A DNA stretch of 64,000 nt from a virus (Duplodnaviria; Heunggongvirae; Uroviricota; Caudoviricetes). Every line of letters starts with the position of its first letter. Position 1 is the first letter of the stretch. The position numbers were made by a program, and so were the translations under genes. The notes under the pieces were generated by a model that worked only from the letters and a program-made list of their open reading frames with translations, ran no database searches and was not told where the DNA came from. Shown here in pieces: positions 1 through 23,370 of the stretch. The DNA is taken from positions 13,508 through 77,507 of IMG/VR virus record IMGVR_UViG_3300021255_003438. One strand, 5' to 3'.

Positions 1-209
1 TGAGGAATCTTTCTTTAAAATTTTTCATAACTATTTAAATAAAATTATTCCAATCAAAACTAATGTTATAATAAATAGTGCTAACTGTAAAAAATCTAAT
101 GCCTTATAAATTTTTAAAGGCATATAATTACTTCCCTTGTCATTCATATGCTGCAAATATATAAATAATTTTTTAAATAACCAAATATATAGTTATATTT
201 TAACAAAAA

Positions 210-896
210 TTATTCCAATTTCTTCCACATATCTTCTGGATATGAACTATGCAGCTTATTCAACCACCACTTTGTCTTCGTCTTACACATTGGCAGTCTC
301 TGACCACTCATAAGCGTTGACCTCTTAATTACCACACCTTCCTTAATATTAGGATATTGACAGCCCTTTTCCGTCCAATCATTGTTGTTTACGGAGTTGA
401 TGAAATCCATGTTAAGTTTGCCAATGTATATCACCTCTGGAGTTTCAATCCTATCGTCCTCACAGAAGATGTCAATGAATGTGTTAGGCTCAATATAGCC
501 CTTTTTCTTCAAAAACACGTCAATCAATGCAAGGTGCATTTCATCACCATCTTGGTGGAATCCACAAAAGCTGTGCTCACCGTACCATTCAAAGAACAGT
601 GTAATTTCTTCAATGCCGTTGAAGATGCCTTTCTTTCCAGAGTTATTAATAATGATTTCCCTCAAAACATTTTCATAGTTCTTTTTAAAGAACCTTACAG
701 CATCACCAAACCCATCTGTGTTTTCATCCACTAGGGTTTGACGAGAGCCAAACAATGTAAACTGTTGCTTAGTTGCACCCTTGGGAGTATATTTCACCCT
801 AAAATTTTGGCCATCAAGCTTGTTGAACGCAACTACTTGTTCACCATGTAGTGTTTTGTCATCCCTAAAATTTGGTATGCTTAGATATTCTTTCAT
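210..896 (-). CDS. Putative ATP-dependent RNA ligase-like nucleotidyltransferase (KxDG motif)
   Basis: 228 aa ORF. N-terminal 'AFNKLDGQNFRV' matches covalent nucleotidyltransferase motif I (KxDG). Ends with a TAA stop. Confidence 0.45.
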   Translation of the reverse strand: MKEYLSIPNFRDDKTLHGEQVVAFNKLDGQNFRVKYTPKGATKQQFTLFGSRQTLVDENTDGFGDAVRFFKKNYENVLREIIINNSGKKGIFNGIEEITLFFEWYGEHSFCGFHQDGDEMHLALIDVFLKKKGYIEPNTFIDIFCEDDRIETPEVIYIGKLNMDFINSVNNNDWTEKGCQYPNIKEGVVIKRSTLMSGQRLPMCKTKTKWWLNKLHSSYPEDMWKKLE

Positions 897-899
897 GAT

Positions 900-1457
900 T
901 TAATGCCAACAACTTTTTTTATGTAATACTTTAAGCTTTTGAAGCCAATATGTTTCTATACGCTGTTTTTTATAACTGTTAAAACAATTCCTTACAAGTT
1001 CAAATTGATTTTCACCTATTTGCCATTCCGTTCCAATCGTGCAAGAATAGTACATTTTATCACCAGTTTTAATATAAGGCTTCAATTCAATATAAAACGA
1101 TAGATTAGGAGCATGACTAATTAGAGTTAAACATAATTCTTTGACTTTTTCTTCTATCACAAACTCAAACTCTTCAAAATGAGTTTCCATTTCGTTGTCT
1201 ATGTATATTTTGATAGCTATATCATCTGTAAGATAGTTACTGTCTTCGCAATAATATATCCTACCAACACAAAACTTACCAGTAGAAAAATAGTTTTGCC
1301 TAGTAATTTGTTTATAATAATAATCGCCCAAATAATGTTTATAAGAATCGTCCAAATAGCCGCCAAACATTTTTTGAATGGCATATTCATAGTTTATGGT
1401 ATTTGGCTCAAACGGCAGTTCCTTTGTTAAGATGTAATACTTACCTTTTTCTATCAT
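900..1457 (-). CDS. Hypothetical protein, paralog of the next gene
   Basis: 185 aa ORF. Starts MIEKGKYYILTKELP, similar to MFEKGKYYVCIGKP of the adjacent ORF, so a tandem paralog. Confidence 0.5.
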   Translation of the reverse strand: MIEKGKYYILTKELPFEPNTINYEYAIQKMFGGYLDDSYKHYLGDYYYKQITRQNYFSTGKFCVGRIYYCEDSNYLTDDIAIKIYIDNEMETHFEEFEFVIEEKVKELCLTLISHAPNLSFYIELKPYIKTGDKMYYSCTIGTEWQIGENQFELVRNCFNSYKKQRIETYWLQKLKVLHKKSCWH

Positions 1458-1995
1458 AGAAATATCGTCCTCTAATTGCTTTCAATAGTTTACAGTCTTT
1501 TAACACAGCTATTTTGATTTCTCTGAGCAAAATCTTAGCAGTATCAGTTAGTTCATTGCGGCTTATGCCAGTGTAACGGATATATTCATCAGTGGCATAT
1601 ATGCACTCAATTTTAAATTTCACTTCGTCATTTTTTCTATCTATATAGTCTGGTTTTATACTCAAGTTTCTAACGCATTTAAGTTCATAAATTGGTTTAA
1701 ACATCTTGTCATCAAAAGTCACATCTATTTCTTGAAAATAGTTCTCATCCCTTTCTGAAAGTTTATAATACATACCACAGTCATTTTTCAAAAGACCCCA
1801 TGTCACTACTGGACCATATATCTTATCTTTGGTAAAGTTGAATTCACAGTCCTCAGTATAGAACTCACGGTCTTCAAAGTATATTGTGCTTCTTCTCCTA
1901 AATCTATTGTTTCCAAATACAGATGCAATAAAATCATTCACCTCTTCTGTACTTGGTTTACCTATACACACGTAATATTTCCCCTTTTCAAACAT
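1441..1995 (-). CDS. Hypothetical protein, paralog of 900..1457
   Basis: 184 aa ORF with N-terminal similarity to its neighbour. Confidence 0.5.
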   Translation of the reverse strand: MFEKGKYYVCIGKPSTEEVNDFIASVFGNNRFRRRSTIYFEDREFYTEDCEFNFTKDKIYGPVVTWGLLKNDCGMYYKLSERDENYFQEIDVTFDDKMFKPIYELKCVRNLSIKPDYIDRKNDEVKFKIECIYATDEYIRYTGISRNELTDTAKILLREIKIAVLKDCKLLKAIRGRYFYDRKR

Positions 1996-2001
1996 ACTTT
2001 G

Positions 2002-2361
2002 TTAGCATTTTACGTATTTCAGTTTTATTGTCTTTTTATCCCTATCTATTATACAAGAGTCATCATCTTTATTGGAATGTGGATAAATAATGTTATTTCC
2101 ATATTTTTCTTGGTAAAATACATTTAGCCATTTTCGAAAGGCGTAGTATAATCCTATTTTAAAATCTATGTTTTTTTCATGTTTAAACCAATGGGTTATT
2201 GATGAACAACCAAAATCAACAATAATACTTGAAGAATCAAATGGAATTGTTCGATAATACTTAGTATTTCTTTGATACTCCAAAAATTCATGATAGAATC
2301 CTATTTGTTTAAAGAATCTACATAGTAGTTTATATCCGTCTGAAAATGTTTTAGCAGCCAT
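2002..2361 (-). CDS. Hypothetical protein
   Basis: 119 aa ORF, minus strand, packed with its neighbours. Confidence 0.4.
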   Translation of the reverse strand: MAAKTFSDGYKLLCRFFKQIGFYHEFLEYQRNTKYYRTIPFDSSSIIVDFGCSSITHWFKHEKNIDFKIGLYYAFRKWLNVFYQEKYGNNIIYPHSNKDDDSCIIDRDKKTIKLKYVKC

Positions 2362-2782
2362 AAGCCCTTACTTTTCTCCATGTATATTTCCCAAAAGAAT
2401 CTTCCAAGTATAGTTCTGGAAATATATAACCCCTAATTACAAATGATATTGTTTGTCCGTTTCTTGTGAATTTTATGGTGTTACCATAGTATGAATAGGT
2501 GAATGTCTGTGTATACCAATTAACGTCTCTTGCTTGAGCCATCGTGATGTCGCACGTCCTTTCACTTAGGAACTTTATTTCCTTGAACTCAACGCTTCCA
2601 ACAATGCAGCCGTATTCACACTGCCATGTACCCAAAAGCTTTTCAGCACAGAAATAATCATACTTTTGATGGTAATGTGGTATTCCATAATCATCAAACC
2701 CATCTTCATCATGCCCATAGGGGCAATATTCACAAGATATGAATGATAGTGATAGTATGGTAAATAAAATTATTTTTCTCAT
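2351..2782 (-). CDS. Putative lipoprotein (signal peptide + lipobox-like ...FISC)
   Basis: 143 aa. N-terminal hydrophobic MRKIILFTILSLSFISCEY, Cys-rich. Confidence 0.45.
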   Translation of the reverse strand: MRKIILFTILSLSFISCEYCPYGHDEDGFDDYGIPHYHQKYDYFCAEKLLGTWQCEYGCIVGSVEFKEIKFLSERTCDITMAQARDVNWYTQTFTYSYYGNTIKFTRNGQTISFVIRGYIFPELYLEDSFGKYTWRKVRAYGC

Positions 2783-2985
2783 ATTCGTTTAATCTTATTT
2801 ATGTCTAGATTTACGATACTAGCGTTTAGTCTTTCCTCATTGCCTTTCACATTTGTAATCTTTCCATCCCTAATAATGACTATTGTGCACTGTCCATTCC
2901 CATGTAATGAATATAGATACCACTGTCTGTTCGGTTTCCAATCGTCAACATAGGTCACTACATCGCCAACTTGTAGGTTATCCAT
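2779..2985 (-). CDS. Hypothetical small protein
   Basis: 68 aa ORF with a 4-nt overlap to its neighbours. Confidence 0.35.
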   Translation of the reverse strand: MDNLQVGDVVTYVDDWKPNRQWYLYSLHGNGQCTIVIIRDGKITNVKGNEERLNASIVNLDINKIKRI

Positions 2986-3481
2986 TTTCCTTCAACAGCT
3001 TTTCCCTAACCTCATCTAATGCTTTCCCAAGTAGGTTTAAACCGTTCCAATTGGACTTGTCATCAAGTGCTTCTGTCTCTCCGCATTTGATGCCATAAAT
3101 TCCATCGATGGGTGAAGCCTCCACAAAGTGCTTACCCTTTAGCTCATCATTGAGCAAGTTAGCCTTAAGCTCTTCGTTGTTCTTGAACTTGTGATAACAA
3201 GCATCAACCATGACTTGATAACGCTTTTCATCCCAAACTTTATCGTCATAGTTCTTTACCATGCGCCCAAACGTCTTGGCTTTCTTTGGATTCTTGCCCT
3301 CAAGTAGTATCTTAAGTGCCATTTCTTCGTCACCGAATGTCTTGGCTTTGATGTACATGAAATACTGTTCAGAGTTATAGAATGTATAATTATTACCGTC
3401 AATCTTTACATTGAAAAGACATGGAAACCAGTTTGATGGCCATTCTCCCCAAAAAAATACGTGCTTATCTGTTACTCTCAT
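2978..3481 (-). CDS. NADAR (DUF1768/YbiA-like) domain protein, ADP-ribose/NAD-related N-glycosidase family
   Basis: 167 aa. 'FFWGEWPSNW...YNSEQYFMYIKAKTFGD...KFKNNEELKANLL...EASPIDGIYGIKCGE' matches the NADAR consensus (FxSNf...saEqyfq..Ka..F.D...EaSp.D..WGiG). Confidence 0.7.
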   Translation of the reverse strand: MRVTDKHVFFWGEWPSNWFPCLFNVKIDGNNYTFYNSEQYFMYIKAKTFGDEEMALKILLEGKNPKKAKTFGRMVKNYDDKVWDEKRYQVMVDACYHKFKNNEELKANLLNDELKGKHFVEASPIDGIYGIKCGETEALDDKSNWNGLNLLGKALDEVREKLLKENG

Positions 3482-3842
3482 AATAATGGTTTTTTAAAAT
3501 GGTAATTCTAATGGTGGGTTTTTTATCTATTAATTCCTTGGTTTTCAAATTGTATGTATACCTATTGGTTTCTTTCAATTCTTTGTCCAACATGAGCATG
3601 TTTTCTGCCGTTGGTTTGTCTAATATCCAATCTCCGTTGTCAACTATGAAAAGAATGTCATCTATTTTAAACTCTAAATCAAAATCTGAATGTATAAGGC
3701 AAAATTTATACCTAATTGACATTAGAGGACCGAAAGGAGTAGTTTCATCTGTTTTAGTAAATGTTGGATAAACCAATATCCAATTATATGACTGCCATTT
3801 TGATTTTAGTCTGCATAATTTATTTAATGGTATGTTTAACAT
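3465..3842 (-). CDS. Hypothetical protein
   Basis: 125 aa ORF. Confidence 0.4.
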   Translation of the reverse strand: MLNIPLNKLCRLKSKWQSYNWILVYPTFTKTDETTPFGPLMSIRYKFCLIHSDFDLEFKIDDILFIVDNGDWILDKPTAENMLMLDKELKETNRYTYNLKTKELIDKKPTIRITILKNHYYESNR

Positions 3843-3875
3843 TTTTCAATTCTAATGTTTAATAATTAATTCTCT

Positions 3876-4262
3876 TTAGGATTCTCCTTTAATTTTTAAA
3901 CGACTCCTATTTATTCTTAAATGGTTTTCCCTCATTACGTTTTTCAGCTTCATATACTCTTCAAGTGTCGGTTTTCTGATGACACACCTATTATTACACC
4001 CACAAATGGTATTAAAAGACCATTTATCAGTCATTGAATTATAGTACATATAGCAGTATATTTCGTGCCATCCCATACCGAAACCGTTTAAACTGACTGA
4101 TTTAACTATCCCAATTATTTTTTCTGTTAAAACATTATGGTCGTTTATGCCCCATCGCATATGTTTATACTCTAAAGCGAAAACATCACCAATTTTCAAT
4201 TTGTTGACAAATTCAATATTTGGGTCGTTTTTGCCATATTTTTTAGAACATACTTTCTCCAT
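3876..4262 (-). CDS. Hypothetical Cys-containing protein, paralog of 4243..4620
   Basis: 128 aa. Shares GxGWHxIxCY...W..N..CGC with the neighbour. Confidence 0.45.
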   Translation of the reverse strand: MEKVCSKKYGKNDPNIEFVNKLKIGDVFALEYKHMRWGINDHNVLTEKIIGIVKSVSLNGFGMGWHEIYCYMYYNSMTDKWSFNTICGCNNRCVIRKPTLEEYMKLKNVMRENHLRINRSRLKIKGES

Positions 4263-4620
4263 ATTCGTTAGTAAAATTAATATCTTCTCCTCTTGTTAAT
4301 AAACGTTTGTGGTTTAAAATGGTTTTGTTGCCTTTAAGTATGGAAGCCATTTTAAAATAATCTTCCATCGTTGGCTTTAATATTTTAGTCATTGTATCAC
4401 ATCCGCAAGAACCGTTTATATACCACTTTTTATTGGTTAAATTTATCAAAAAATAACAATTTATCTTATGCCAACCTTGTCCATACACATCTAGTGCACA
4501 AGACTTGAAAATGCCAACTATTTTTATTCTTGAGTTAAAGCTATTAAAAGCTATTTTAAATAAATCACCTTTTTTAAAATTAGCGATTATATCTTTATTT
4601 TTATCTTCTAATTCTATCAT
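4243..4620 (-). CDS. Hypothetical Cys-containing protein (paralog). Start moved to the internal Met downstream of the promoter.
   Basis: The ORF track gives 4243..4683, but a host-type promoter (-7 at 4644-4651) lies inside the 5' end. A Met (MIELEDK...) at 4620 fits. Confidence 0.4.
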   Translation of the reverse strand: MIELEDKNKDIIANFKKGDLFKIAFNSFNSRIKIVGIFKSCALDVYGQGWHKINCYFLINLTNKKWYINGSCGCDTMTKILKPTMEDYFKMASILKGNKTILNHKRLLTRGEDINFTNEYGESMF

Positions 4621-4643
4621 TTTACTATCTGCAATTATATTTG

Positions 4644-4675
4644 CAAATATATAAAAAAACATGGAGAATTCAAAA
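4644..4675 (-). promoter_or_regulatory. Bacteroidetes sigma-A type promoter (TTTG -33 / TAnnTTTG -7)
   Basis: Plus strand reads caaatata at 4644-4651 and caaa at 4671-4674 with a 19-nt spacer. Confidence 0.5.
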
Positions 4676-4703
4676 TCCTCCATGTTAATTTATGTTAACT
4701 GAT

Positions 4704-5927
4704 TTAACCAATCTGTTTAATCAGATAATTGCACTTCTCAGTATTTCCCAAGGTTTTACCCTTATCATTGGAAAGCTTAACGCAATCATGCCATTCACGG
4801 CTCTCTGTAAGCCTCATTCCAATCAATTTGATTACAATGTTGCTATAAGGAAATTTCTCTTTTGTTTCCATGTTGGCAACATCAGCGCAAAGATGTGTTC
4901 CAATGCCATAGGAGTCCTTCATACGTCCGCCAAGCCACTTGTGCAACTCAACAGCCTTGTCAATGGTAAGGGCGTTAGAATATACAATAGACTTGGTTGA
5001 TGGGTCAATACCAAGAGAACGATATTTCTCAATCATCTTCTCAGTTTCCTCATGCTCGTCACCACTGTCAATACGGATACCATCGAACATCTTAGCCATC
5101 TTTTTAGAGAAATTGGAAAGGAACACCTTTGAGCCAAAACAGTCAGGAAGGAATATGCCCAAGTCGCCGTCATACACGTCAGACCATTTCTTCATAACTT
5201 GATAATTGCACTCAAACACGCCACTTACGCACTCTTCGAATGAGCAAATCTGGTGTGACATCGTTCCTATCACTCCAAGGTCAAATTCCTTTGCAAACCA
5301 CACATTAGATGTTCCAACGAATTTTCCATTGTAATGAGGGGTTTTCTTAATCTCTATATCAGCATTTTTTAATGCGTTAATTACATTACGCTGAACGTCA
5401 AATGAAAAGCGTCTACGTGTTCCCATGTCAGAAAGCAGCAGTCCATTTGTAAATGCTTTAGCTCCTTTTGCATACGCTTCTCTGTATACGTCATCCATGT
5501 CAACCTTTTCAATGTCGCCTTTAAGTATATGCATCAACTCTGAAATGGTAGATAGAATTGGCATTTCCCACATAATTGTGGAATACCACTTACCCTCAAT
5601 CATAATTGAGAGATAGCCATCAAGGTCTTGGAAAATGTGAACCTCACTAGGATTGAAACGGAATCCACGAAGGAAATTGTAGTACCACTCTGGAAGGAAA
5701 TAAATCTTTTTCTTCATAAACTCAATCTCTTCTTCAGTGATAATTACATTGGCCATTCCGTTAATCTGCTCTTGTAGCATCTGACCAAATCCTTTTGGAT
5801 AGCGAGTATAGTTTCTGTCAAAGAACGAATACCTTACCTCTGCACGAGGATAAGTGTGTAAAATGTAATACTGACAAGTGTACGTATAGAGGTCGTTATC
5901 AGTAAAATGAGTTACAATTTGTTTCAT
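4704..5927 (-). CDS. pncB: Nicotinate phosphoribosyltransferase
   Basis: 407 aa. Has 'LLSDMGTRRRFS' and the overall NAPRTase layout and length. Confidence 0.8.
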   Translation of the reverse strand: MKQIVTHFTDNDLYTYTCQYYILHTYPRAEVRYSFFDRNYTRYPKGFGQMLQEQINGMANVIITEEEIEFMKKKIYFLPEWYYNFLRGFRFNPSEVHIFQDLDGYLSIMIEGKWYSTIMWEMPILSTISELMHILKGDIEKVDMDDVYREAYAKGAKAFTNGLLLSDMGTRRRFSFDVQRNVINALKNADIEIKKTPHYNGKFVGTSNVWFAKEFDLGVIGTMSHQICSFEECVSGVFECNYQVMKKWSDVYDGDLGIFLPDCFGSKVFLSNFSKKMAKMFDGIRIDSGDEHEETEKMIEKYRSLGIDPSTKSIVYSNALTIDKAVELHKWLGGRMKDSYGIGTHLCADVANMETKEKFPYSNIVIKLIGMRLTESREWHDCVKLSNDKGKTLGNTEKCNYLIKQIG

Positions 5928-5962
5928 GCTTTATATATTTTGGTAATAATATAGGTGTTGAC

Positions 5963-6406
5963 CTATTTTTGAATGCTAATCGAAATATCTGGTTTAACAA
6001 CGAGTTCAAATTGATTAAAGTCTTTACCGCCTTCTTTTTCTTTAATATATCTTTGTTTTAAATCAAAATTTTCGTGTTCCCCTTCATTTATAAACAATTC
6101 AACATCAATAATAGTTGCCAACTTGAATACTGGCATACTTCTAAATAATGTTGTATTCCAATAAATCATATCAATTTTGTTTTTAGCAGCCTTTTTAGTA
6201 TTAAACAATTTCGCATTGTTAATGTTTTGGCTGTAACATTTAAAATAATATGCACCGCCATCGTAATACAATGGCTCTTCTCCTTTCCACCCATCAGCAA
6301 TGAATTTTGGGTCTTCTTCAAGATGATACTTTTTTTTACAATTAAGTAACTCTTGTATACCATCTTTGGACGGAAATAATTTAATAATATATTTTTTCAT
6401 ATTCAA
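5963..6406 (-). CDS. Hypothetical protein
   Basis: 147 aa. Uses a TAG stop. Confidence 0.4.
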   Translation of the reverse strand: MNMKKYIIKLFPSKDGIQELLNCKKKYHLEEDPKFIADGWKGEEPLYYDGGAYYFKCYSQNINNAKLFNTKKAAKNKIDMIYWNTTLFRSMPVFKLATIIDVELFINEGEHENFDLKQRYIKEKEGGKDFNQFELVVKPDISISIQK

Positions 6407-6474
6407 TAATTAAAATTTAAAAATATGTTAATTTTTGCTTGGGTCAACTGATATATCATTGCCTATATTTTTAA

Positions 6475-6846
6475 TTAATGTATACTTTGTACAAAAACAT
6501 TTGATGTTGTGTTTTTACCTCGTCTTATAAGTATGATTTGGTCTTTGGTAGAGTCTTTTAACTCAAATACTATGTGTTGATTAATCCTGTTTTTCAGCAA
6601 AATAAGTGCTTCAAAAGGATAAAGTGCTTTAACAGCTATTATCTTCCACTCACGGCTAACAATACTAGTCGAAGGATATTCTGTATCACTACTACAAGGA
6701 ATGTTTGAACTAACGCCAAAAAAAGTTTTACTAGAATGGAGTTGAAAGCACCATTCGTTAGTATCTAGTGCCACAATATCACCAATATTCGGCACACAAT
6801 CGATGTCTGTGTATATACCTAAACGATTTCTAATGTGTATTGTCAT
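6475..6846 (-). CDS. Hypothetical protein
   Basis: 123 aa ORF. Confidence 0.4.
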   Translation of the reverse strand: MTIHIRNRLGIYTDIDCVPNIGDIVALDTNEWCFQLHSSKTFFGVSSNIPCSSDTEYPSTSIVSREWKIIAVKALYPFEALILLKNRINQHIVFELKDSTKDQIILIRRGKNTTSNVFVQSIH

Positions 6847-7364
6847 CTTCTTGGTAGTTTCAGAACTTTAGGAGTGTTGTTCTTGGGGTTATGCTTCACC
6901 ATTGCAAGTCCATCAACGCCAACCAATATACTTCTTTTCAATTCGTCAATAAGTTGGCATATTATATTATGCCCCCTTTCGTGCATAATCATTCCAGCAA
7001 TGCGCCATTTCTTATTTTGCCAATATTTTTCAGGTGGTATTTCACCATTTGCAACAAATAAGTAGCCTCCAGCGTAATAACGGTTATTAAAATCACTTCT
7101 ACCCATCAATCCATTGGGGTATTGTTCTTCTGCCTTAGAAAAACCATGCCATTTCTTTCCCCATAAAGCTTCCATAGCATCTGAATAGGTTGAATATAAG
7201 CATCCGTAATTTACGCACTTAACTATGTCATTTATGTTAAAGCCGCTATTGTTAATAACCGTTTCCATAGTCGTAATCGTATCTATTGTATCTGTGTTTC
7301 TGATAGCTGTTGCTGCCATCTTTTGCCATATCCCCAAGGTAATAGAAAGATTCACAGCAGCCAA
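6843..7364 (-). CDS. Hypothetical protein with HExxH (MIMHERGHN) motif, possible zinc metallopeptidase
   Basis: 173 aa. The single HExxH motif is the only evidence. Confidence 0.3.
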   Translation of the reverse strand: MAAVNLSITLGIWQKMAATAIRNTDTIDTITTMETVINNSGFNINDIVKCVNYGCLYSTYSDAMEALWGKKWHGFSKAEEQYPNGLMGRSDFNNRYYAGGYLFVANGEIPPEKYWQNKKWRIAGMIMHERGHNIICQLIDELKRSILVGVDGLAMVKHNPKNNTPKVLKLPRR

Positions 7365-7424
7365 CCATCAAGAATATTATTAGAATGAGCCTAATAAACC
7401 ATCTGAAAAAATCTCTTCCCATAA

Positions 7425-8327: not shown

Positions 8328-8347
8328 GTTTTCTAATTTTTTTTTTG

Positions 8348-8379
8348 CAAATATACGATAAACTTACGAAATAGCCAAA
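8348..8379 (-). promoter_or_regulatory. Bacteroidetes-type promoter
   Basis: caaatata at 8348-8355 and ccaaa at 8375-8379, spacer 19 nt. Confidence 0.55.
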
Positions 8380-8397
8380 TATGAAATGTTAAAAATG

Positions 8398-8922
8398 CTA
8401 AATATAGGTTTTATACTCTGCATAAGATATAAACATTCCCAAAACTATTGCCACAAGCAAAAGTGCTTTTATTGGAAGAATTATTGTTAAATAGCAAAAG
8501 AAAATCATCAGTCCAACAGTTGTTGTTATTACACCCCCAACCATTTTGTAGTGAACATCAGTATGCTTTGTTACAATTTCATTAGGATGGCTCTTAAAAT
8601 AGTCTTCGATGAATATGTCTTGCAACGATTCTATTGTCACTGGTTCTTTTACATACTTAATTTTTTTTGTCGGCAAACAATGAATAAGTTTTATCCCTTC
8701 CATGAACTCAGTTGGAGGAACGCTTGTTGTTGGAAATTTGACTTTATTCGTCCGTATTATGTAATCATGCCTTACTAGGAAAGAAAGATTATCATCATAA
8801 TAGTAATCGTAAAGGCTTTTATATGAAAGCATAAAACTTCCAAACAACTTTCTTTTTTTAAGAGACCTAAAAAAAGAAATGAAATGTTTTAAATATGGAC
8901 TAGAATGAATTCTTTTTTTCAT
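8398..8922 (-). CDS. Membrane protein
   Basis: 174 aa with C-terminal hydrophobic segments. Confidence 0.4.
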   Translation of the reverse strand: MKKRIHSSPYLKHFISFFRSLKKRKLFGSFMLSYKSLYDYYYDDNLSFLVRHDYIIRTNKVKFPTTSVPPTEFMEGIKLIHCLPTKKIKYVKEPVTIESLQDIFIEDYFKSHPNEIVTKHTDVHYKMVGGVITTTVGLMIFFCYLTIILPIKALLLVAIVLGMFISYAEYKTYI

Positions 8923-9143
8923 TTATAAAATAGGTTGCTAAATGGTTTTATAACACGTTTCCAATTAAACAATCTGTTAATGAAGCCTTCACTTTTCAAA
9001 TCATCAAACAATTCTTTTGCTTCGTTGAACTTTTGTTTGTATATGATTGTTTGATTTTTCTCTTCAATTAAAGAAGATTCCAAGGACTTAACTTTATCCT
9101 TAAGTCCTTGGTACTCTTCCATTGGAATTTCTATACGAGCCAT
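8919..9143 (-). CDS. Hypothetical small coiled-coil protein
   Basis: 74 aa ORF. Confidence 0.3.
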   Translation of the reverse strand: MARIEIPMEEYQGLKDKVKSLESSLIEEKNQTIIYKQKFNEAKELFDDLKSEGFINRLFNWKRVIKPFSNLFYK

Positions 9144-9742
9144 ACTCTTTCTGAATTTTCAATAAAATTAGTAAAGCTATTTGCTGTGTCTTCGGCTATA
9201 GCTGGGCTATATTCCTTCATCACTGCGAAATTAACATCAGGCATCGCTTTAACGCCATCTTTCACTGAGTCTGCAAGGCAATAGTCATATGCAAGGCCGC
9301 ATACATTAATGACTTGCGGTTTAATATAGTTGCAAAGGTTTACGATGAGGTCATGAGACTTTTCGTTCTTGAACACAGAATATTCCTCATGCTCTTCATT
9401 AAGACCCTTGGTGACTACAACATAATCAGCCTTAATTTCGTTGAGCGCGTCAAGAATCGGCTGATAGATAGCTGCTCCATGAGAGTGCTGAACACAGTGC
9501 ATTGGCCACATGCCGCCATTATCCTTAAACGAACAATGTGTGATAGGATGCCAATCAGCAGTTAGAATGATTTTTTCGTAATCCTTTCCGTGACCTCTGA
9601 TAAAGTCAGCCAAGTTATTCATTGCTCTCTCTGCACCATTTACAGGGAGTGTTCCACCCTCTAAAAAATCATATTGTGGGTCTACTACTAATAAAATTTT
9701 ACTTGTCATATTATTATTTGTTTTATTTTTCTTATAAATCAA
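9131..9742 (-). CDS. pncA: Nicotinamidase/pyrazinamidase (isochorismatase family)
   Basis: 'ILLVVDPQYDFLEGGTLPV', 'ADWHP', and a catalytic Cys context (NVCGLAYDYC). The start may be the internal Met at 9709. Confidence 0.75.
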   Translation of the reverse strand: MIYKKNKTNNNMTSKILLVVDPQYDFLEGGTLPVNGAERAMNNLADFIRGHGKDYEKIILTADWHPITHCSFKDNGGMWPMHCVQHSHGAAIYQPILDALNEIKADYVVVTKGLNEEHEEYSVFKNEKSHDLIVNLCNYIKPQVINVCGLAYDYCLADSVKDGVKAMPDVNFAVMKEYSPAIAEDTANSFTNFIENSERVWLV

Positions 9743-9983
9743 TAGAGTCTTCAGTTATGTCATAGGTGACACAACTGTTATGATACTTTTTCACAAATAG
9801 GTCGGTGCAATGACCATCTTCCTTTTTAGTGCCCTTAAATGGGCATTTCTTACATAATGTTCCCATGATTTATTCCTTTTTTGCAAATATATAAAAAATA
9901 TATTAAATATAAAAATATATTAATATATAATTTATTTATTTAATATAATTTAATAATATATATTAATTAATTAAGAGTCCAAC

Positions 9984-11381
9984 TCAAGTTGTTAGGCTCT
10001 TAATTTTATTCTCTACGACCTCAAAGCATTCATCTTTCGTAATATTTGGATTTTCGAAATAGGCATCTTTGACTGCCTCAAGCAGAACTCCAATTATCGG
10101 CCCACCTTTTAATTTAAATTCTGCCATAATGTCTTTTCCATTTATAGGCAGTTTGATGTTGGCCATCTTATCAATGTCCTCAAGCTCTTCTATTCTGTTA
10201 AGAAGGTCGTACACTTGTCGTTTTTTCTTGTCGTATGTGGAATGTAGGTTATTGGCGTTCATTAGGTCAACCACTGTTCCGATGTCGTTTCCGCATAGAT
10301 TCATGAACTTTCTGATTTTCTTATCTGGAGGTACTACGCCATCCGCATAGATTTTGAAAATCCTATGATATTCTATAGCAGTTTGTACGCTTTTAATGAT
10401 ATGGTTTGGAAACTTCATCATCTTCAAGTCTGCTGCTGCAATCTCTCCGCTAAAGTTATCAGGATTAACTGTTTTGTCCTTATCCGTTATAACCTTTCCA
10501 ACGTCATGGAATAATGCTGCCAATCTGCTTTCAAGGTATGGCTGCGTTTCGTCCAACACATTCATGGTATGGTCAAATGTTGTTACCATTGGGTTTTTAG
10601 ACTCATACGCAAAGTTAGTGTCGTATATATCAGGCATTACCTTGTTCAGCACGCCACAGTAATACATTTTCCTTATGCCAACGCTAGGCTTGCTGCATAA
10701 CAGAATTTTTGAAATTTCATCACTGATTCGTTCTTGTGATACGATTTCCAACCTATTTACGTTTTTAATCATACCAAGCCATGTGTCCTTATCAATACCC
10801 CATCCTAGACGAGTTGAGAAACGAATGACACGCATAATCCTCAATGGGTCATCATTGAACGTTATATCTGGGTCTGTTGGTGTTCGTATGATTTTAGCAC
10901 AAAGGTCAGAATATCCAGTGCCGTTAAAATCGCACAGTTTATCTTGGCTTATGTTGTAATATAAAGAATTGATTGTTAAATCTCTTCTTTTTGCGTCTTC
11001 TTCTATAGTTCCAAATACAGTCTCTGGATTCCTATTTTCTTTATGATACTGCTCCTTACGAGTCTGCACACATTCTATTTCAATGTCCTTAAACTCTTCG
11101 TGTTTATATAATTGGAATTTAGCAGTACCATAGGTCTCAAATATTACAGGATTTGTTGACGTAACAAAACATTGATGTTTCATCGTCATGTATGTGGAGA
11201 ATAGAAGTCCTCCATTTGGTATGTCAATTACCAAATCCAAATCCTTAATTGGAAGCCCTAAGATGCTGTCACGGACAGAGCCACCGACAACGTATACATG
11301 ATTGTCGAAGTGGGTGAACTTAATCGTTTCCCTTATTAGATTTAGAAGCTTTTTTATTTTCTCGTCCTTGAATATTTCCAT
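9984..11381 (-). CDS. cca: tRNA nucleotidyltransferase (CCA-adding enzyme) with HD domain
   Basis: 465 aa. 'VVGGSVRDSILGLPIKDLDLV' is the PolyA-polymerase head motif. 'LFHDVGK' is the HD motif. Confidence 0.8.
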   Translation of the reverse strand: MEIFKDEKIKKLLNLIRETIKFTHFDNHVYVVGGSVRDSILGLPIKDLDLVIDIPNGGLLFSTYMTMKHQCFVTSTNPVIFETYGTAKFQLYKHEEFKDIEIECVQTRKEQYHKENRNPETVFGTIEEDAKRRDLTINSLYYNISQDKLCDFNGTGYSDLCAKIIRTPTDPDITFNDDPLRIMRVIRFSTRLGWGIDKDTWLGMIKNVNRLEIVSQERISDEISKILLCSKPSVGIRKMYYCGVLNKVMPDIYDTNFAYESKNPMVTTFDHTMNVLDETQPYLESRLAALFHDVGKVITDKDKTVNPDNFSGEIAAADLKMMKFPNHIIKSVQTAIEYHRIFKIYADGVVPPDKKIRKFMNLCGNDIGTVVDLMNANNLHSTYDKKKRQVYDLLNRIEELEDIDKMANIKLPINGKDIMAEFKLKGGPIIGVLLEAVKDAYFENPNITKDECFEVVENKIKSLTT

Positions 11382-11622
11382 TATCGTTTAAAGATTTTAA
11401 TCTGTATTTTTTGAATTCTTCTAACAAACAACACATCCATTTCATGTTTATATTTTTCCAATACTTAACCCCTTCCTCAGTTTTATCCCAAGGAATCGAT
11501 GTGACAGCAAAACTATTGTCGTTAAGAGCATATTTCCTATAATAGTAGCAATATTTTATATAACATCCGTTTTCCTTCAAGAATTTGGAAAACAAAGGTG
11601 TTATTCGCGTTTTTTCTTCCAT
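11320..11622 (-). CDS. Hypothetical protein
   Basis: 100 aa. Overlaps the cca start by about 60 nt. Confidence 0.3.
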   Translation of the reverse strand: MEEKTRITPLFSKFLKENGCYIKYCYYYRKYALNDNSFAVTSIPWDKTEEGVKYWKNINMKWMCCLLEEFKKYRLKSLNDNGNIQGRENKKASKSNKGND

Positions 11623-12632
11623 TATGATACTAACTCTAAAGGATATAAAAATCTAGCCAATTCATGCTCATAGTAAAAAACTAAGTCAGAATCAACAATT
11701 TCTATCCCATTGAGTAATTTATACACTTGAGGGTAATAAGTGGCAGGAACGCCCTTTAAAATGCGTCTATTGGCATTTAAATAATCTTCTTTCTCATATA
11801 CAGTTAATATTGAGCTAGATGCTGCTAATTTAAAATTTCTTGCATAAAGTTTAAACTTGCTTCCTTTGTATTCAATTCCTTCAAATACAATAGATGGTAA
11901 TATTTCGCATTTTTCAAATTCTTTTTCATTACCATTCCATTTAAAAATTATTTCGTCTGAATTTATAGAAAATAAAGTGAGCTTTCCAGCCATTATATAA
12001 TCTCTACTATGTTCTTTTGCGAAAATATTAATTATTCCATTGGTAGAAGATACGATTGACTTTGCAACTTCATTTGTAATCCACTTTTCAAGATTAATTG
12101 TTCTTTTTGGATTGAGTTTACCAAAAATTACTTGTCTTGTGTATTTTGACTGTTTTATATAATCAAGGTCAGTGAATTTTCCAATAAAATTTTCATAAGT
12201 ATTAGCATCGCAAACTATAGCTGGATTTGCATATTTCAACGTTTGGAAGTTTGCTTTTTTCATATCATATGATATAAACAAGCATCCATCTTGTTCGTTT
12301 GTGTATAAATTTTTATTTGAACAAATTGGAACTATATTCTTGACAAATTTTTCATTAGATATGAAATCTTTATATGCTTCAGAATTTGTTATACTTGTAA
12401 TAATATTGTCTCTTACTTGATGATAATATTCAAGAAACTTATTTGGATTTCCATCGAATTTTTCATCAATCATAAATAACAAATTTTCGTATAAGGTTTT
12501 CGCCATATATTCTTCCTCTAGCAGTTCTAATCTATCTTCAAAGTATGGCGACTGCACCACTTGAATGGGCAGACTGAAATCGCTCACAAAGCGGTTTCTG
12601 AGTTGTTTAATTTCTAATGATGTTTCTATCAT
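11622..12632 (-). CDS. Hypothetical protein
   Basis: 336 aa ORF. Confidence 0.45.
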   Translation of the reverse strand: MIETSLEIKQLRNRFVSDFSLPIQVVQSPYFEDRLELLEEEYMAKTLYENLLFMIDEKFDGNPNKFLEYYHQVRDNIITSITNSEAYKDFISNEKFVKNIVPICSNKNLYTNEQDGCLFISYDMKKANFQTLKYANPAIVCDANTYENFIGKFTDLDYIKQSKYTRQVIFGKLNPKRTINLEKWITNEVAKSIVSSTNGIINIFAKEHSRDYIMAGKLTLFSINSDEIIFKWNGNEKEFEKCEILPSIVFEGIEYKGSKFKLYARNFKLAASSSILTVYEKEDYLNANRRILKGVPATYYPQVYKLLNGIEIVDSDLVFYYEHELARFLYPLELVS

Positions 12633-12940
12633 ATGTCGTATTTTTCTTTATATTCTTGATGATACACAAATGACTTCCATTCCTCATTTATTTTATGCCA
12701 AAAATCAAGTTTTTTAAAAAACCCATTTATATTTTTTGGATAACTAATACTTGATACACTAGAAAATGAATGAATCAAGTCACGCATTTGGCAATTGTTG
12801 AAAATGTCATTGACATATATTCTGTGCCTTTTTGCCTCAATCATATAGTTACCAATGAAATCCCCTAACAGTTTTTTCTCTTTCAAGAATTTAACCAATA
12901 TCTGTTTTTTTTTCAGTCCAATTTGATGTAAATCTTCCAT
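12629..12940 (-). CDS. Hypothetical protein
   Basis: 103 aa ORF. Confidence 0.4.
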   Translation of the reverse strand: MEDLHQIGLKKKQILVKFLKEKKLLGDFIGNYMIEAKRHRIYVNDIFNNCQMRDLIHSFSSVSSISYPKNINGFFKKLDFWHKINEEWKSFVYHQEYKEKYDI

Positions 12941-13000
12941 AGTGCAAATATATGAAAAAAACGTGAGATACCAAAATATCCCACGTTAAAGTTTATTAAA

Positions 13001-13771
13001 TCAACCATTATTGATTGAACATTCAAATATTGTGACTAATGCATTTGGGTCTAGGTTCTTTATAAACCTATCATAAAACGTACTGACCCATTCAGTTTCA
13101 CTACCTTCAAAGGTATCTACGTCAACCCACCCATCTTTGTCAACAAAGGCATAGTTCCAATAAGAGGTGCTGTAGTTTACATACTCTTCTTCTGATTTGA
13201 ATTTACGGAAATATGCTTCTTTGTCTTTCATGGCGTTATAGATGGCCTCTTCTTCCGTATTTGAAGGTGTTTTACCTTCCATAACCATTTCCCAAGCAGC
13301 TTTATAGACACTTGCGTTTGTGTGTGTCATTGATTCCCAATCCACTTCACTTACATGAGCAGAATAGGCTTCCATACCATTTTTTAATAGCAATGGCATA
13401 GAGAAATTCCTTCCTACCCTACAAGTGTTGAAATGGGCATTAGGATTTTCAGTTGACAAGGCATCACCATCTTCATTGTAATACATTCCATCTGTAAGCT
13501 GTCTGTAATACTCGAATGAAGATTGTTTTTTAAGCTCTTCTAAGCGTGTTTTAAGCGTTTCTTGTGTGGTTGGTGGTATTCCTATCTTATCAGCTTCATC
13601 AAGCAACTTCTCAAGCGTTTTAATAGATGCTTGCTGATACTTCTTAGCCTCAAGATATTTGTACTTGACATATGGTTCGACTTCATAGTCTGCGCCATAT
13701 TTCTCCATCATTTTCTGTGGCTCTTCTCCTACGGCCATTACAGAAAAAAATCTACTATTCGTCTGTGCCAT
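13001..13771 (-). CDS. Hypothetical protein
   Basis: 256 aa ORF. Confidence 0.45.
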   Translation of the reverse strand: MAQTNSRFFSVMAVGEEPQKMMEKYGADYEVEPYVKYKYLEAKKYQQASIKTLEKLLDEADKIGIPPTTQETLKTRLEELKKQSSFEYYRQLTDGMYYNEDGDALSTENPNAHFNTCRVGRNFSMPLLLKNGMEAYSAHVSEVDWESMTHTNASVYKAAWEMVMEGKTPSNTEEEAIYNAMKDKEAYFRKFKSEEEYVNYSTSYWNYAFVDKDGWVDVDTFEGSETEWVSTFYDRFIKNLDPNALVTIFECSINNG

Positions 13772-13774
13772 ACA

Positions 13775-15154
13775 TTATCTGTTTGGGGTCGTTTCACCTA
13801 GATAGTTCGGCATTTCAAAATGCATTCTAACTGGTTCATATTCAATATGAGGTACTTGAATGTCAGCAGTTATAGTTGCTGCGATTTGGTTTACACCGTT
13901 CAGTGCTGTGTTGTCAATGAAATCCCTATCCATTTGTTGGCCAATTCTGCCACCAAATATATCATCAAGGGAATCATCATCGTCATTTGCCGCACCAACA
14001 GCACCTACTCCTTCCATAGGTTCGCCACCTTCTACTTCTTCCTCACCTATAAGCTCACCGTTCTCTACCTCATCCTCTTCAATGTCAAAGGCGTTTGTCA
14101 TTTCACTTCCTATGCTTTCAATTTTTTTAATAAGCTCATCCGTTACTTCTTTATTGTAGGAAATTTTGGTTGAAGAATCAAAATTTACTCCAAAATTAGC
14201 AGACACGCAATCATTGAAAGAATATGTTTCTTGTTTGCCTAGAGATTGGAACAGAATATCATTCACGATATTGTTGTGATTTGTTTTATATCTTGTGTAA
14301 AACCAAGTATATGGTTTTTTGTTTTTGCTAATAATCTTTTCATACACCTTATCCATGAGTCTTCTTTCATTAAGAATGTCCTCAAGGAGTGACTTGTCTT
14401 TCAAGGCCCAAGAACTCTTATTGAAGGAGTTGGTGCCAGGAAATGCAAACGATGGGCATGTGCTAGACACTATGCAAGCGATGTCATAGTCTTCTAATAT
14501 ACTATCAATCGCTTTTTCGTTGTAAACAAAACTTTCATCTTTCCAATACAGTTTCCTACCGATTCTTTCTTGCTGCGCCTTTTTCCATTCCCTATCCAAT
14601 GAAATGCTTCCGCCCAAACATAGGCAGTTGAATGATTCAAACTTAACTATTGAATAATCAGGTACTGTCTTCACATTTGACAGATTGATTTCTTCATTGT
14701 TGAACAAACTAGGGTTGTCGCTGTTTCCTCTGACAAACAGCACATGACAATTGTTATCACTTAAAACTGTATTGAAATTGTTAAACTTAGAAATGTAGAA
14801 AGATGTGTCTTTACTACCCAAACCACAATTTCCGCATACGATTATAATAGTGTCATTTAAGAAACCACGCATACTTGACATCATCTTTTTAAGCGATGGC
14901 CTAGAATGGTCAAATGCATGAGCGTGCAAACCAAAAGGATTGACAAAAGGGTTATTAAGTTGTTCTCTAAGTCTTTCCTCTTCTTTCCTTTTAAGCCTTT
15001 CTTGTCTTTCAACTTCTTTTGGATGAATTTCTTTTGATACGTTCTGTGTATTAGGCAGTTTTCTTATAACGTTTTCGATGAATTTGTCAAGGCCGTTTTC
15101 TATACTGCCACAAAGCACACAGTTATTAATCGGTTCGTAATCATAAATTTTCAT
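13775..15154 (-). CDS. Hypothetical protein with degenerate calcineurin-like phosphoesterase motifs and an acidic C-terminus. Start adjusted.
   Basis: 'IIIVCGNCG' and 'FVRGNSDNP' weakly resemble metallophosphoesterase motifs GDxHG and GNH[DE]. The ORF track gives 13775..15352, but a promoter at 15197-15228 lies inside, so the Met at 15154 (MKIYDYEP) is the likely start. Confidence 0.35.
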   Translation of the reverse strand: MKIYDYEPINNCVLCGSIENGLDKFIENVIRKLPNTQNVSKEIHPKEVERQERLKRKEEERLREQLNNPFVNPFGLHAHAFDHSRPSLKKMMSSMRGFLNDTIIIVCGNCGLGSKDTSFYISKFNNFNTVLSDNNCHVLFVRGNSDNPSLFNNEEINLSNVKTVPDYSIVKFESFNCLCLGGSISLDREWKKAQQERIGRKLYWKDESFVYNEKAIDSILEDYDIACIVSSTCPSFAFPGTNSFNKSSWALKDKSLLEDILNERRLMDKVYEKIISKNKKPYTWFYTRYKTNHNNIVNDILFQSLGKQETYSFNDCVSANFGVNFDSSTKISYNKEVTDELIKKIESIGSEMTNAFDIEEDEVENGELIGEEEVEGGEPMEGVGAVGAANDDDDSLDDIFGGRIGQQMDRDFIDNTALNGVNQIAATITADIQVPHIEYEPVRMHFEMPNYLGETTPNR

Positions 15155-15196
15155 ACTTGTTAGGTTTTTTAAAAATTCGACATATATTTCTTTTTG

Positions 15197-15228
15197 CAAA
15201 GATATGTTTTTTTTTCTTAATTTCCAAA
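15197..15228 (-). promoter_or_regulatory. Bacteroidetes-type promoter
   Basis: caaagata at 15197-15204 and ccaaa at 15224-15228, spacer 19 nt. Confidence 0.5.
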
Positions 15229-15290
15229 ATTTGAACAATAAAAAAATGAGTGATACTTTCAAAATAGCACCACTCATTTCTGTATGTAGT

Positions 15291-23019: not shown

Positions 23020-23370
23020 TTAAAGCGGAACTAATGCTTCCATTAAACTTTTCATAAAGCATGTATTAACCACTTTTTCTAGTAGATAGTCCTTTATAGT
23101 TTCCATTGTAGGATATTTGGCGCAAAGGCAGTCTGGTTTGTCACCAATCCACGCCACTTCGGTAAAGTAAAAGTGCACGCCCTCTTCCCCATATTTGAAC
23201 AACTTTTCATCATCACCGTCTTTGTTATAGTATACGGCAACTTTTCCACGATTATAACAATACTTCTTAAGAAGCTTATCTATGTCTTCGTTTAATAAGT
23301 TAATTTTAATTTCCATATCACTTACATTTTTTTTAATTATGCCAATAGCAATAAATACATTTATGCTCAC
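23020..23370 (-). CDS. Hypothetical protein
   Basis: 116 aa ORF. Confidence 0.4.
   Translation of the reverse strand: MSINVFIAIGIIKKNVSDMEIKINLLNEDIDKLLKKYCYNRGKVAVYYNKDGDDEKLFKYGEEGVHFYFTEVAWIGDKPDCLCAKYPTMETIKDYLLEKVVNTCFMKSLMEALVPL

Follow-up and report, generated by a model that had tools for sequence, protein, structure and literature searches.

A block of auxiliary genes in the first 15 kb of a 64-kb stretch of viral DNA (the window, from record IMGVR_UViG_3300021255_003438) encodes two RNA ligase-like proteins, here called Rnl-A and Rnl-B, a tRNA nucleotidyltransferase of the CCA-adding type, and a protein of metallophosphoesterase (MPE) fold in which the metal-binding motifs have been replaced (pseudoMPE). 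The block is conserved within a clade of huge phages, and on balance it probably serves the phage translation apparatus, by combining tRNA maturation and the sealing of RNA nicks with a dead MPE subunit and with end healing provided from elsewhere. The first-pass annotation of this DNA had proposed the same four genes as an RNA repair and tRNA maturation toolkit next to a tRNA island. All four exist, on the minus strand and where they had been placed (the mechanical open reading frame, or ORF, of the fourth is longer), and hundreds of metagenomic relatives conserve the four proteins, with profile matches that are significant and not chance patterns; they are not contiguous, however, being interspersed with NAD+ salvage genes and many unknown ORFs, and the tRNA island, although near, begins at 27.3 kb, approximately 12 kb from the nearest of the four. 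Coordinates are those of the window, except where they are preceded by the label of a related locus; locus L004 extends past the window start. The four genes and two unannotated neighbours, u336 and u256, are the following (aa, amino acids):

210-896, minus strand: Rnl-A, 228 aa, a stand-alone RNA ligase nucleotidyltransferase domain (PF09414) without accessory domain; motif I NKLDGQN at 804-824 (aa 25-31, with K26), motif III FFEWYGE at 576-596, motif IIIa LIDVF at 513-527, motif IV KEGVVIKR at 321-344, motif V CKTKTKWW at 264-287 (with K205 and K207)
7425-8327, minus strand: Rnl-B, 300 aa, PF09414 with an N-terminal extension of approximately 50 aa and a short C-terminal helix; motif I SKIDGTN at 8145-8165 (aa 55-61, with K56), motif III IYGEYFG at 7836-7856, motif IIIa VVFDI at 7770-7784, motif IV EEGIVARP at 7578-7601, motif V VIVKVKYC at 7521-7544 (with K265 and K267)
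9984-11381, minus strand: class-II tRNA nucleotidyltransferase of the CCA-adding type, 465 aa, with C-terminal HD domain; motifs GGSVRD at 11268-11285, DLD at 11229-11246, RRD at 10968-10991, DDPLRxxRxxRF at 10818-10853, H...HD at 10494-10577
11622-12632, minus strand: u336, 336 aa, directly upstream of the CCA enzyme gene; motifs hSxDLKKANFQ at 12243-12275, SKYxRQVIFGxLNP at 12108-12149, SDE (SxDE) at 11946-11963
13001-13771, minus strand: u256, 256 aa, directly downstream of the pseudoMPE gene
13775-15154, minus strand: pseudoMPE, 459 aa, calcineurin-like fold with all metal-binding motifs replaced; motif I GSIENG at 15092-15112 (GD(I/L/M)HG in active homologues), motif II GNC at 14822-14839 (GD), motif III GNSD at 14711-14731 (GNHD), motif IV SSTCPSF at 14447-14467 (THTCPSF), motif V YTRYKTNH at 14276-14299 (YGHYHxH); inserted HPKExERQERL helix at 14993-15025

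Ligases and CCA enzyme of the block

The earlier description of Rnl-A and Rnl-B as RNA ligase-like proteins, with their KLDGQN and KIDGTN sequences, is borne out, as both exceed the Pfam cut-off of 27 bits for the RNA_ligase family PF09414 (Rnl-A, E = 6.4e-10 and 39.9 bits; Rnl-B, E = 1.6e-16 and 61.4 bits). Both also match phrog_548 (1.4e-19 and 3e-23, respectively) and phrog_968, two phage protein families annotated as 'RNA ligase'. In family alignments of 24 sequences each, the invariant residues (of motifs I, III, IIIa, IV and V, in this order) are K26, E103, D126, E186-G187, K205 and K207 in Rnl-A (alignment A2), and K56, E161, F184-D185, E244-G245, K265 and K267 in Rnl-B (alignment A1); the motif V lysines are thus retained, and an identity as DNA ligase or capping enzyme was rejected on the basis of Pfam class and fold. 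A single-sequence search with Rnl-B gave weak matches to PDB sequences, with T4 Rnl2 (1s68, 2hvq) aligning motif by motif; phmmer and hmmsearch comparisons of Rnl-A, A1 and A2 to PDB sequences were uninformative, as the narrow family profiles fail to reach the solved ligases. With the AF2 model of Rnl-B, which is of moderate confidence (pLDDT 66), Foldseek retrieved T4 Rnl2 first (E ~1e-6), then Trl1, Rnl3 and the Naegleria Rnl5 enzyme, and DNA ligases far behind.

T4 Rnl2 (1s68, 2hvq, 2hvr) is therefore the best sequence and fold match of Rnl-B, and it shares the fold, the Pfam family and motifs I, III, IIIa, IV and V with both window ligases; yet Rnl-B differs from it in motif I (KxDG vs. 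KxHG), in a segment between motifs I and III that is longer by approximately 40 aa, and in the 50-aa N-terminal extension. Rnl2 has in addition a C-terminal domain, required to seal a nick in duplex RNA, which is missing from both Rnl-A and Rnl-B; only 21 aa follow motif V in the former and approximately 31 aa in the latter. The NCBIfam equivalogs for Rnl2, DRB0094/Rnl5 and archaeal (Rnl3) ligases gave Rnl-B scores of 14-22 bits against cut-offs of 137-197, including 22.4 bits for the T4 Rnl2 model TIGR02307 (cut-off 197.15) and 20.9 bits for TIGR02306 (Rnl5, the DraRnl-NgrRnl type; cut-off 151.15), with no PF21189 match for the N-terminal OB domain; Rnl-A matched none of these equivalogs. RNA_lig_T4_1 (PF09511, the Rnl1 family) was matched by neither ligase at E <= 0.1. 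Judged by these comparisons, Rnl-A and Rnl-B appear to fall outside every characterised ligase subfamily tested, and are best described as predicted Rnl2-like minimal domains, not as ligases of the T4 Rnl1 type; Rnl1 is the ligase that actually repairs tRNA in T4. The two proteins share 20% identity, with a profile-profile probability of 10%; this weak match led to the rejection of a recent duplication, and they would be old paralogues at best.

Genes of the Rnl-B type, annotated as 'RNA ligase', are widespread in crAss-like, Klebsiella, Acinetobacter and Streptomyces phages, and genes of the Rnl-A type occur in Lak phages, in other huge phages and in the Xanthomonas phage XacN1. The Lak protein (MK250015-MK250029) is 57-59% identical to Rnl-A over its full length, and other members of the block were not found near it in the Lak genomes. 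In XacN1 (L063, AP018399.1 239851-241425), the gene of the 207-aa 'hypothetical protein' ORF354, 31% identical to Rnl-A, precedes that of an annotated NAD+ synthetase (ORF356) at a distance of two genes. None of the Lak and XacN1 homologues has been biochemically characterised.

The CCA-type enzyme with HD domain, as first annotated, was confirmed by Pfam and PHROG. The PolyA_pol head (PF01743, 8e-25, 88 bits), PolyA_pol_RNAbd (PF12627, 3.3e-13, 49.6 bits) and tRNA_NucTran2_2 (PF13735, 1.2e-6, 29 bits) are above their cut-offs, the HD domain is borderline-significant (1.5e-4, 22.4 bits vs. a cut-off of 22), and phrog_2244 'tRNA nucleotidyltransferase' is matched at 1.5e-61; head, neck, body and HD domain are those of the class-II CCA enzymes known as multifunctional CCA addition/repair proteins. 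The NCBIfam models TIGR02692, NF009814 and NF008137 match below their equivalog cut-offs (the best, a CCA model, with 210.7 vs. 438.8 bits), and the PcnB model matches as well (121 bits), so that CCA-, A-only, CC-only and poly(A) specificity cannot be separated by sequence. The context favours CCA addition. ARAGORN finds 31 tRNA genes and a tmRNA between 27298 and 60557, to which Rfam adds six tRNA-like matches, and none of the 31 ARAGORN genes encodes CCA at its 3' end: position 74, after the discriminator, is C in 30 of 31 genes, position 75 is A in 23, T in seven, G in one and never C, and position 76 is A in 26. Every phage tRNA therefore needs post-transcriptional addition of CCA (or CA), which gives the CCA enzyme a direct maturation role, independent of any repair scenario; tRNA 3'-end maturation is, with high confidence, its most likely function. 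The non-CCA trailer of these genes, 'CAA' or 'CTA', is a conserved signature and may be a determinant of 3' processing.

Several tRNA-like elements of the island, all on the minus strand, are unusual. The tRNA at 35398-35472 carries a CTA anticodon (an amber suppressor, labelled 'Pyl' by ARAGORN), as in the TAG-recoding Lak megaphages, and the tRNA at 58243-58313 received an abnormal two-base anticodon call. At 37687-37811, Rfam detects a tRNA (35 bits) that ARAGORN does not call; its acceptor, D and T arms are normal, but a 68-nt segment replaces the 15-nt anticodon arm, which may point to an intron-like insert or to a mimic that is no tRNA. It is the sole tRNA-like element with such an insert that was seen; the first-pass annotation had suggested that the toolkit could also process split or permuted tRNA-like units. 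Rfam tRNA-like matches missed by ARAGORN also lie at 33217-33293, 40763-40839, 44386-44450 (covering tRNA model positions 8-63 only), 45371-45442 and 45536-45607. Between two tRNA-Arg genes, an isolated 80-nt segment (52087-52166, minus strand) matches positions 2131-2210 of the bacterial 23S rRNA model with 63 bits (gathering threshold 50; E = 2.7e-16), and has the appearance of an rRNA-fragment mimic.

The pseudoMPE, its neighbours and repair clusters of sister phages

The possible phosphoesterase of the first-pass annotation has an MPE fold and degenerate motifs, as proposed; its activity as a dinuclear MPE does not survive closer inspection, since every canonical metal ligand is lost. The mechanical ORF extends to 15352 (525 aa); 15154 is the likely start, because homologues (440-510 aa) begin at the same Met of MKIYDY.... 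The protein has no Pfam match, and its sole PHROG match, to phrog_1649 'metallo-phosphoesterase', is weak (4.7e-4). Its AF2 model, calculated from a 27-sequence alignment, has pLDDT values mostly of 85-93 over the core residues 1-330. The top Foldseek matches of this model were structures of the RNA lariat debranching enzyme Dbr1 (5k77 and 5k78, E = 5e-6), followed by Mre11, GpdQ, LpxH and Rv0805; nearly all of the top 30 are MPE-fold proteins, and the catalytically inert MPE-fold proteins GAP50 and the polymerase B-subunits are also among the matches. Dbr1 (5k77, 5k78, 4peh) is an MPE-fold enzyme that acts on RNA, and it is matched with probability 1.0; however, identity is approximately 10%, TM-scores are 0.3-0.4, and Dbr1 keeps its His and Asp/Asn metal ligands.

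The metal-binding columns of pseudoMPE and 26 family members (alignment A3) read GSIENG, GNC, GN(S/-)D, S(S/N)xCPSF and (T/S/G)(R/K)(Y/F)(K/G)xxN, and the family has gained the conserved HPKExERQERL helix and an acidic, disordered tail of approximately 110 aa. Active homologues from a second huge-phage clade (clade 2; alignment A4) are 274-288 aa long, 30-32% identical, and encoded 1.5 kb upstream of Rnl-A; the two that were scanned, from L019 and L038, both pass PF00149 (1.5e-11 and 2.2e-9). As predicted from these alignments, pseudoMPE cannot work as a dinuclear MPE. Since its active homologues accompany Rnl-A and the kinase-phosphatase HD-Pnk in sister phages, and the metal ligands are replaced here, it would be a pseudo-enzyme descended from a repair-cluster phosphoesterase, and its strong conservation argues for a retained non-catalytic function. 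Its gene is followed by u256 in all 11 related loci described below, and a u256 homologue with 38% identity lies between the Metallophos gene and HD-Pnk in L008. Terminator-like hairpins with T-rich tails on the minus strand, at 15281-15242 (16 pairs) and 12987-12960 (12 pairs), bracket pseudoMPE and u256, suggesting a separate two-gene transcription unit, at an overall terminator count no higher than chance; scans for sigma-70 promoters and terminators were overall at chance level.

The gene order Ank-pseudoMPE-u256-u336-CCA-PncA-RnlB-NAPRT-NADAR (Ank, Ank-repeat protein) is essentially conserved in 11 IMG/VR loci that contain Rnl-B, at protein identities down to 36-60%; the exceptions are u336, undetected in two of the 11, and NADAR, undetected in one. 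In several of these loci, Rnl-A and a canonical phosphoesterase come next. The order is likewise seen in L009 and L015. The 15-kb stretch is an NAD+ salvage and ADP-ribose island no less than an RNA toolkit; the set has the following members, in the block and beyond it, of which the first three are taken as context:

2978-3481, minus strand: NADAR domain protein (PF08719, 4e-42), for ADP-ribose or N-glycoside processing, a context gene retained in the block in 10 of the 11 loci
4704-5927, minus strand: nicotinate phosphoribosyltransferase (NAPRTase) of Preiss-Handler NAD+ salvage (Pfam 5.7e-44; TIGR01514 330 bits vs. a cut-off of 269.6)
9131-9742, minus strand: nicotinamidase/isochorismatase-like (PncA-like) protein, between the CCA gene and Rnl-B (NF008623 8.2e-22; Pfam Isochorismatase 9.5e-6, below cut-off)
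25575-26165 and 34416-34934: Nudix and CinA/PncC proteins, farther inside the window
L004:18019-18648 and L004:19997-20687: NMNAT-like protein of cytidylyltransferase fold and PARG, just outside the window

In addition, genes resembling nicotinamide mononucleotide (NMN) transporters flank Rnl-A in the relative L009. The NAD+/ADP-ribose set of the window matches that of the 'NAD-jumbo phages' known from animal guts (PMC11662467); the interplay of such systems with RNA repair has also been discussed (PMC9503650).

A different arrangement is found in the clade-2 relatives L008, L019, L038, L039, L041, L045 and L046, where Rnl-A lies within 7 kb of HD-Pnk, of an active MPE homologue and of an OB-containing ligase-like protein; the u256 homologue is present in L008 and L019, and L008 also has a DSPc phosphatase. 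Overall, an HD-Pnk homologue occurs within 10 kb of Rnl-A in 11 of 50 Rnl-A loci, with its HD and AAA_33 architecture, that of the Runella end-healing enzyme (PMC6097658), confirmed by Pfam in L019 and L038, and three further loci have a 'Swiss-army-knife' HAD phosphatase nearby. The OB-containing protein is encoded just downstream of Rnl-A and has 514-598 aa:

L008:11485-13236, L038:10776-12572 and L019:10721-12265: apparent Rnl5-like ligase

It combines an N-terminal PHA02142 OB domain and a coiled-coil insert with ligase motifs recognised by eye in its C-terminal half (KLHGT, GEICG, REGIVLR, KLK), and has the appearance of an Rnl5-like ligase that bears an unusual insertion. The OB and nucleotidyltransferase architecture occurs in proteins of 344 aa (L007) and 583 aa (L008); queries with these two detected nothing in the window or in L004. 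This recurrence of Rnl-A with HD-Pnk, an active MPE and u256, in another arrangement and outside the window clade, is the strongest argument that Rnl-A, u256 and the MPE lineage take part in the healing and sealing of RNA ends.

The unannotated neighbour u336 belongs to a family of 1213 representative clusters with no match in Pfam, PHROG, NCBIfam or PDB sequences; residues S121, D123, A127, N128, R166, G171, D226, E227 and D316 are invariant. Its gene adjoins the CCA gene in nine of the 11 related loci, and in a single case (P0491, 839 aa) it is fused to an N-terminal domain of RlaP, the RNA-ligase-associated Pol-beta nucleotidyltransferase. On the strength of this fusion and this adjacency, u336 is a candidate RNA-repair nucleotidyltransferase. 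By eye, its motifs resemble polymerase palm and finger motifs; an identity as family-A polymerase, a hypothesis at the level of motifs, found no support in an hhalign comparison to the DNA polymerase I of a crAss-like phage, nor in PDB sequence matches.

Pfam, PHROG and NCBIfam scans for a kinase or other healing enzymes covered approximately 60 ORFs (those of the block, larger ORFs elsewhere in the window, and, in L004, nine that lie downstream of Rnl-A); no kinase family was matched in any of them, nor another healing enzyme in the window. Regular-expression scans for Walker A, 2H, HAD and HD motifs revealed no healing enzyme in the window; a Walker A scan of all minus-strand ORFs of at least 70 aa gave one AAA_25 protein and one chance-like match only; and tblastn with HD-Pnk, DSPc, HAD_SAK and MPE queries yielded no healing enzyme in the window, with HD-Pnk absent from both window and L004. 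A search for HD-Pnk loci in IMG/VR genomes of the window clade returned close clade-2 relatives only, and thereby does not prove its absence from the window clade. A canonical MPE of 250 aa (L004:13275-14027), with DMHG, GD, GNHD and GHLH motifs, is encoded 2.4 kb downstream of Rnl-A, outside the window.

Function of the block and comparison with known systems

In the reading preferred here, the CCA enzyme would complete the 3' ends of phage tRNAs and could restore CCA ends that have suffered damage; its HD domain may strip 2',3'-cyclic or 3'-phosphates; removal of such phosphates has been reported for the HD domain of the E. coli CCA enzyme. Rnl-A and Rnl-B would be ATP-dependent enzymes that form a lysyl-AMP intermediate and join 3'-OH and 5'-PO4 ends; their most likely substrate is RNA (tRNA) in which host ribonucleases have left nicks. 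We infer that they depend on structured, nick-like substrates or on a partner protein, probably so because the substrate-binding accessory domain of Rnl2 and Rnl5 is missing. The pseudoMPE, accompanied by its constant neighbour u256, has presumably been kept for a non-catalytic role, in binding or as a scaffold. End healing could be contributed by the 250-aa phosphoesterase outside the window, by the HD domain, by an undetected kinase elsewhere in the genome, or by host enzymes. That the ligases seal RNA nicks in defence of the translation apparatus is held with moderate confidence. A bolder version, an unusual repair machine in which the pseudoMPE, as an RNA-end-binding fossil, and u256 guide the bare-domain ligases to broken tRNA, and in which u336 represents a new nucleotidyltransferase class that restores missing nucleotides to damaged tRNA ends ahead of ligation or CCA addition, seems rather improbable.

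Several observations weigh against the preferred reading. To our knowledge, no characterised PF09414 ligase consists of the nucleotidyltransferase domain alone, and the biological role of T4 Rnl2 itself is unsettled. The Rnl-B model, as noted, has moderate confidence. The two ligase genes are 7 kb apart, with NAD+ genes and unknown ORFs between them, and a gene order that is conserved within one phage clade may be inherited colinearity. In the window and the 10 kb past its start, the searches revealed no polynucleotide kinase, 2H, HAD, RtcB, Tpt1 or Hen1, and HD-Pnk was undetected in the Lak genomes as well. For the 250-aa phosphoesterase, the nearest solved relative is MPPED2, of the cyclic-nucleotide phosphodiesterase type; cyclic-nucleotide signals would be an equally possible target. 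Finally, the ligase-like protein that is paired with HD-Pnk in Runella slithyformis self-adenylylates, and ligated no tested substrate (PMC6097658).

The block could also lack any joint function, and consist of independent auxiliary or early genes in a colinear non-structural arm, with the CCA enzyme maturing tRNAs and the ligases performing unrelated jobs, for instance at nicks in RNA:DNA hybrids, double-stranded RNA or phage transcripts. The dispersal of the genes over 15 kb that also hold NAD+ salvage genes and no fewer than 15 unknown ORFs, and the failure of the window searches to find a kinase are consistent with such independence, as are the crAss-like phages that carry Rnl-B-type ligases without this context (in one case beside HicA), the at least 30 of 50 Rnl-A loci that have no other component within 10 kb, and the Lak phages, which have Rnl-A alone. 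Against it stand the block order, kept at 36-60% protein identity, the u336-RlaP fusion, and the non-colinear clade-2 genomes, in which Rnl-A is again, and independently, found together with HD-Pnk, u256, an active MPE homologue and another ligase; this explanation is considered unlikely, if well short of negligible. Alternatively, Rnl-A might be part of an NAD+/ADP-ribose system, using NAD+ as AMP donor or acting on RNA ends that are ADP-ribosylated, NAD-capped or processed in a Tpt1-like manner, with NADAR, PARG and Nudix clearing the by-products. We know of no NAD+-dependent RNA ligase, which counts against this proposal, and most Rnl-A loci are without NAD+ genes nearby. It draws on the position of Rnl-A among NAPRTase, NADAR, NMN-transporter-like, NMNAT-like and PARG genes in the window clade, on the NAD+ synthetase near its homologue in the unrelated phage XacN1, and on a literature that ties NAD+, Tpt1/KptA and NADAR to RNA repair (PMC9503650; PMC6097658); but no Tpt1/KptA, sirtuin or ART was found among the scanned window ORFs, and NAD+ salvage islands are a documented independent trait of gut jumbo phages, explained by NAD+-depleting defences (PMC11662467). 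An NAD+-linked role of Rnl-A appears very improbable.

A further alternative concerns the pseudoMPE, which might still be an enzyme that uses its invariant C12, C177, C179 and C227 together with D146 and D187 for a new RNA-end chemistry, for example as a variant of a Dbr1-like 2'-5' phosphodiesterase. Its fold is intact and confidently predicted, Dbr1, its top structural match, naturally has a Cys in motif I, and the family strongly conserves Cys, Asp and a charged helix. Against this, His and Asp ligands are gone from all five motifs at once, inactive proteins of the same fold are matched as well, and the invariant cysteines lie inside core beta-strands, not obviously at active-site loops; a retained catalytic activity is accorded only a very slight chance.

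The preferred reading, of a block that serves phage translation, has close precedents. For Lak megaphages, CCA addition and a T4-like RNA ligase have been proposed for tRNA repair (10.1101/356790). A survey of jumbo phages reported several Rnl1, Rnl2 and RtcB ligases per genome, CCA-adding enzymes, RlaP, kinase-phosphatases and occasional calcineurin-like or HD phosphatases, interpreted as counter-measures to host tRNA-cleaving effectors (PMC7824862). Runella slithyformis, a member of the Bacteroidetes and thus of the likely host phylum, has a cluster in which HD-Pnk is paired with a ligase-like protein (PMC6097658) and Tpt1; the sister phages (L008, L019, L038 and others) likewise pair HD-Pnk with ligase-like proteins, and add an MPE and a second, OB-containing ligase, whereas HD-Pnk and Tpt1 were not found in the window. 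NAD+ is a common theme of both. The end-healing modules of Clostridium thermocellum Pnkp (with Hen1) and lambda phosphatase share the calcineurin-like fold, tied to an RNA ligase (PMC2190708; PMC3675462), with the pseudoMPE lineage; however, the metal ligands are lost here, there is no fused kinase-phosphatase-ligase and no methyltransferase or Hen1 match among the scanned ORFs, and the Pnkp ligase is an Rnl4. The T4 Pnk/Rnl and Pnkp/Hen1 paradigms that had been invoked for the four genes are accordingly not reproduced, as kinase, 2H, HAD and Hen1 components are missing from the searched interval and the ligases are not of the Rnl1 type. Heal-and-seal as such stands in part: sister phages place Rnl-A beside HD-Pnk, an active MPE and an Rnl5-like ligase, whereas no kinase was found here and the phosphoesterase is dead. 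RNA-repair gene sets of jumbo phages are already known, and the window block is a recognisable but incomplete variant; its particular features are the catalytic-domain-only ligases, the lack of a kinase nearby, the fossil phosphoesterase, the uniformly CCA-less tRNA genes, and u336.

Source phage and significance

The window has approximately 35% G+C, with virtually every gene on the minus strand, and the identical sequence is present in sheep-rumen assemblies (ENA ERZ28612978 scaffold_473; Logan SRR873598). An identity with a known phage was rejected by megablast of positions 1-16000 against INPHARED, which gave no nucleotide match, to Lak phages or others; the Prevotella Lak megaphages are its nearest named relatives, at the protein level only. 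Contigs bearing homologues of the window proteins, including those of its relatives, measure 300-430 kb, and up to 553 kb. The window thus represents a huge phage of approximately 300-430 kb from the sheep rumen, a distant kin of the Prevotella Lak megaphages, and its likely host group is gut or rumen Bacteroidales. The TAG recoding of Lak phages left no signal in the window; TAG ends seven of 58 ORFs, and TAG readthrough rescues none. Two tandem, overlapping ORFs on the minus strand (3876-4262 and 4243-4683) encode paralogous small proteins with 35% identity (E = 1e-25). Other auxiliary genes, the first five of them among the tRNAs (listed in the order reported), are:

23333-24097, minus strand: DUF1848 protein
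48501-49571, minus strand: radical-SAM protein
31569-32390, minus strand: SPFH/Band-7 protein
55667-56689, minus strand: OmpA-like outer-membrane protein
62787-63971, minus strand: TelA-like protein
44461-45306 and 47044-47844: HNH endonucleases

As a finding, the block is mainly sound annotation that is consistent with published surveys. Huge phages invest heavily in translation, against host defences that cleave tRNA, and the block is one concrete example of a clade-conserved solution in rumen and gut Bacteroidales megaphages, consisting of more than 30 CCA-less tRNA genes, a CCA enzyme of their own, and two minimal ligases. It also illustrates the evolutionary turnover of repair cassettes: the kinase, present in sister clades, was not found here, and the phosphoesterase has become a conserved pseudo-enzyme. 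Candidates for 'minimal' RNA ligases are the 228-aa Rnl-A and the Rnl-B type, which is widespread; the u336 family is large and uncharacterised, and its motifs are plausible as a catalytic signature. If the ligases or u336 prove active, they could be of practical use for RNA ligation and would lengthen the catalogue of RNA-repair enzymes.

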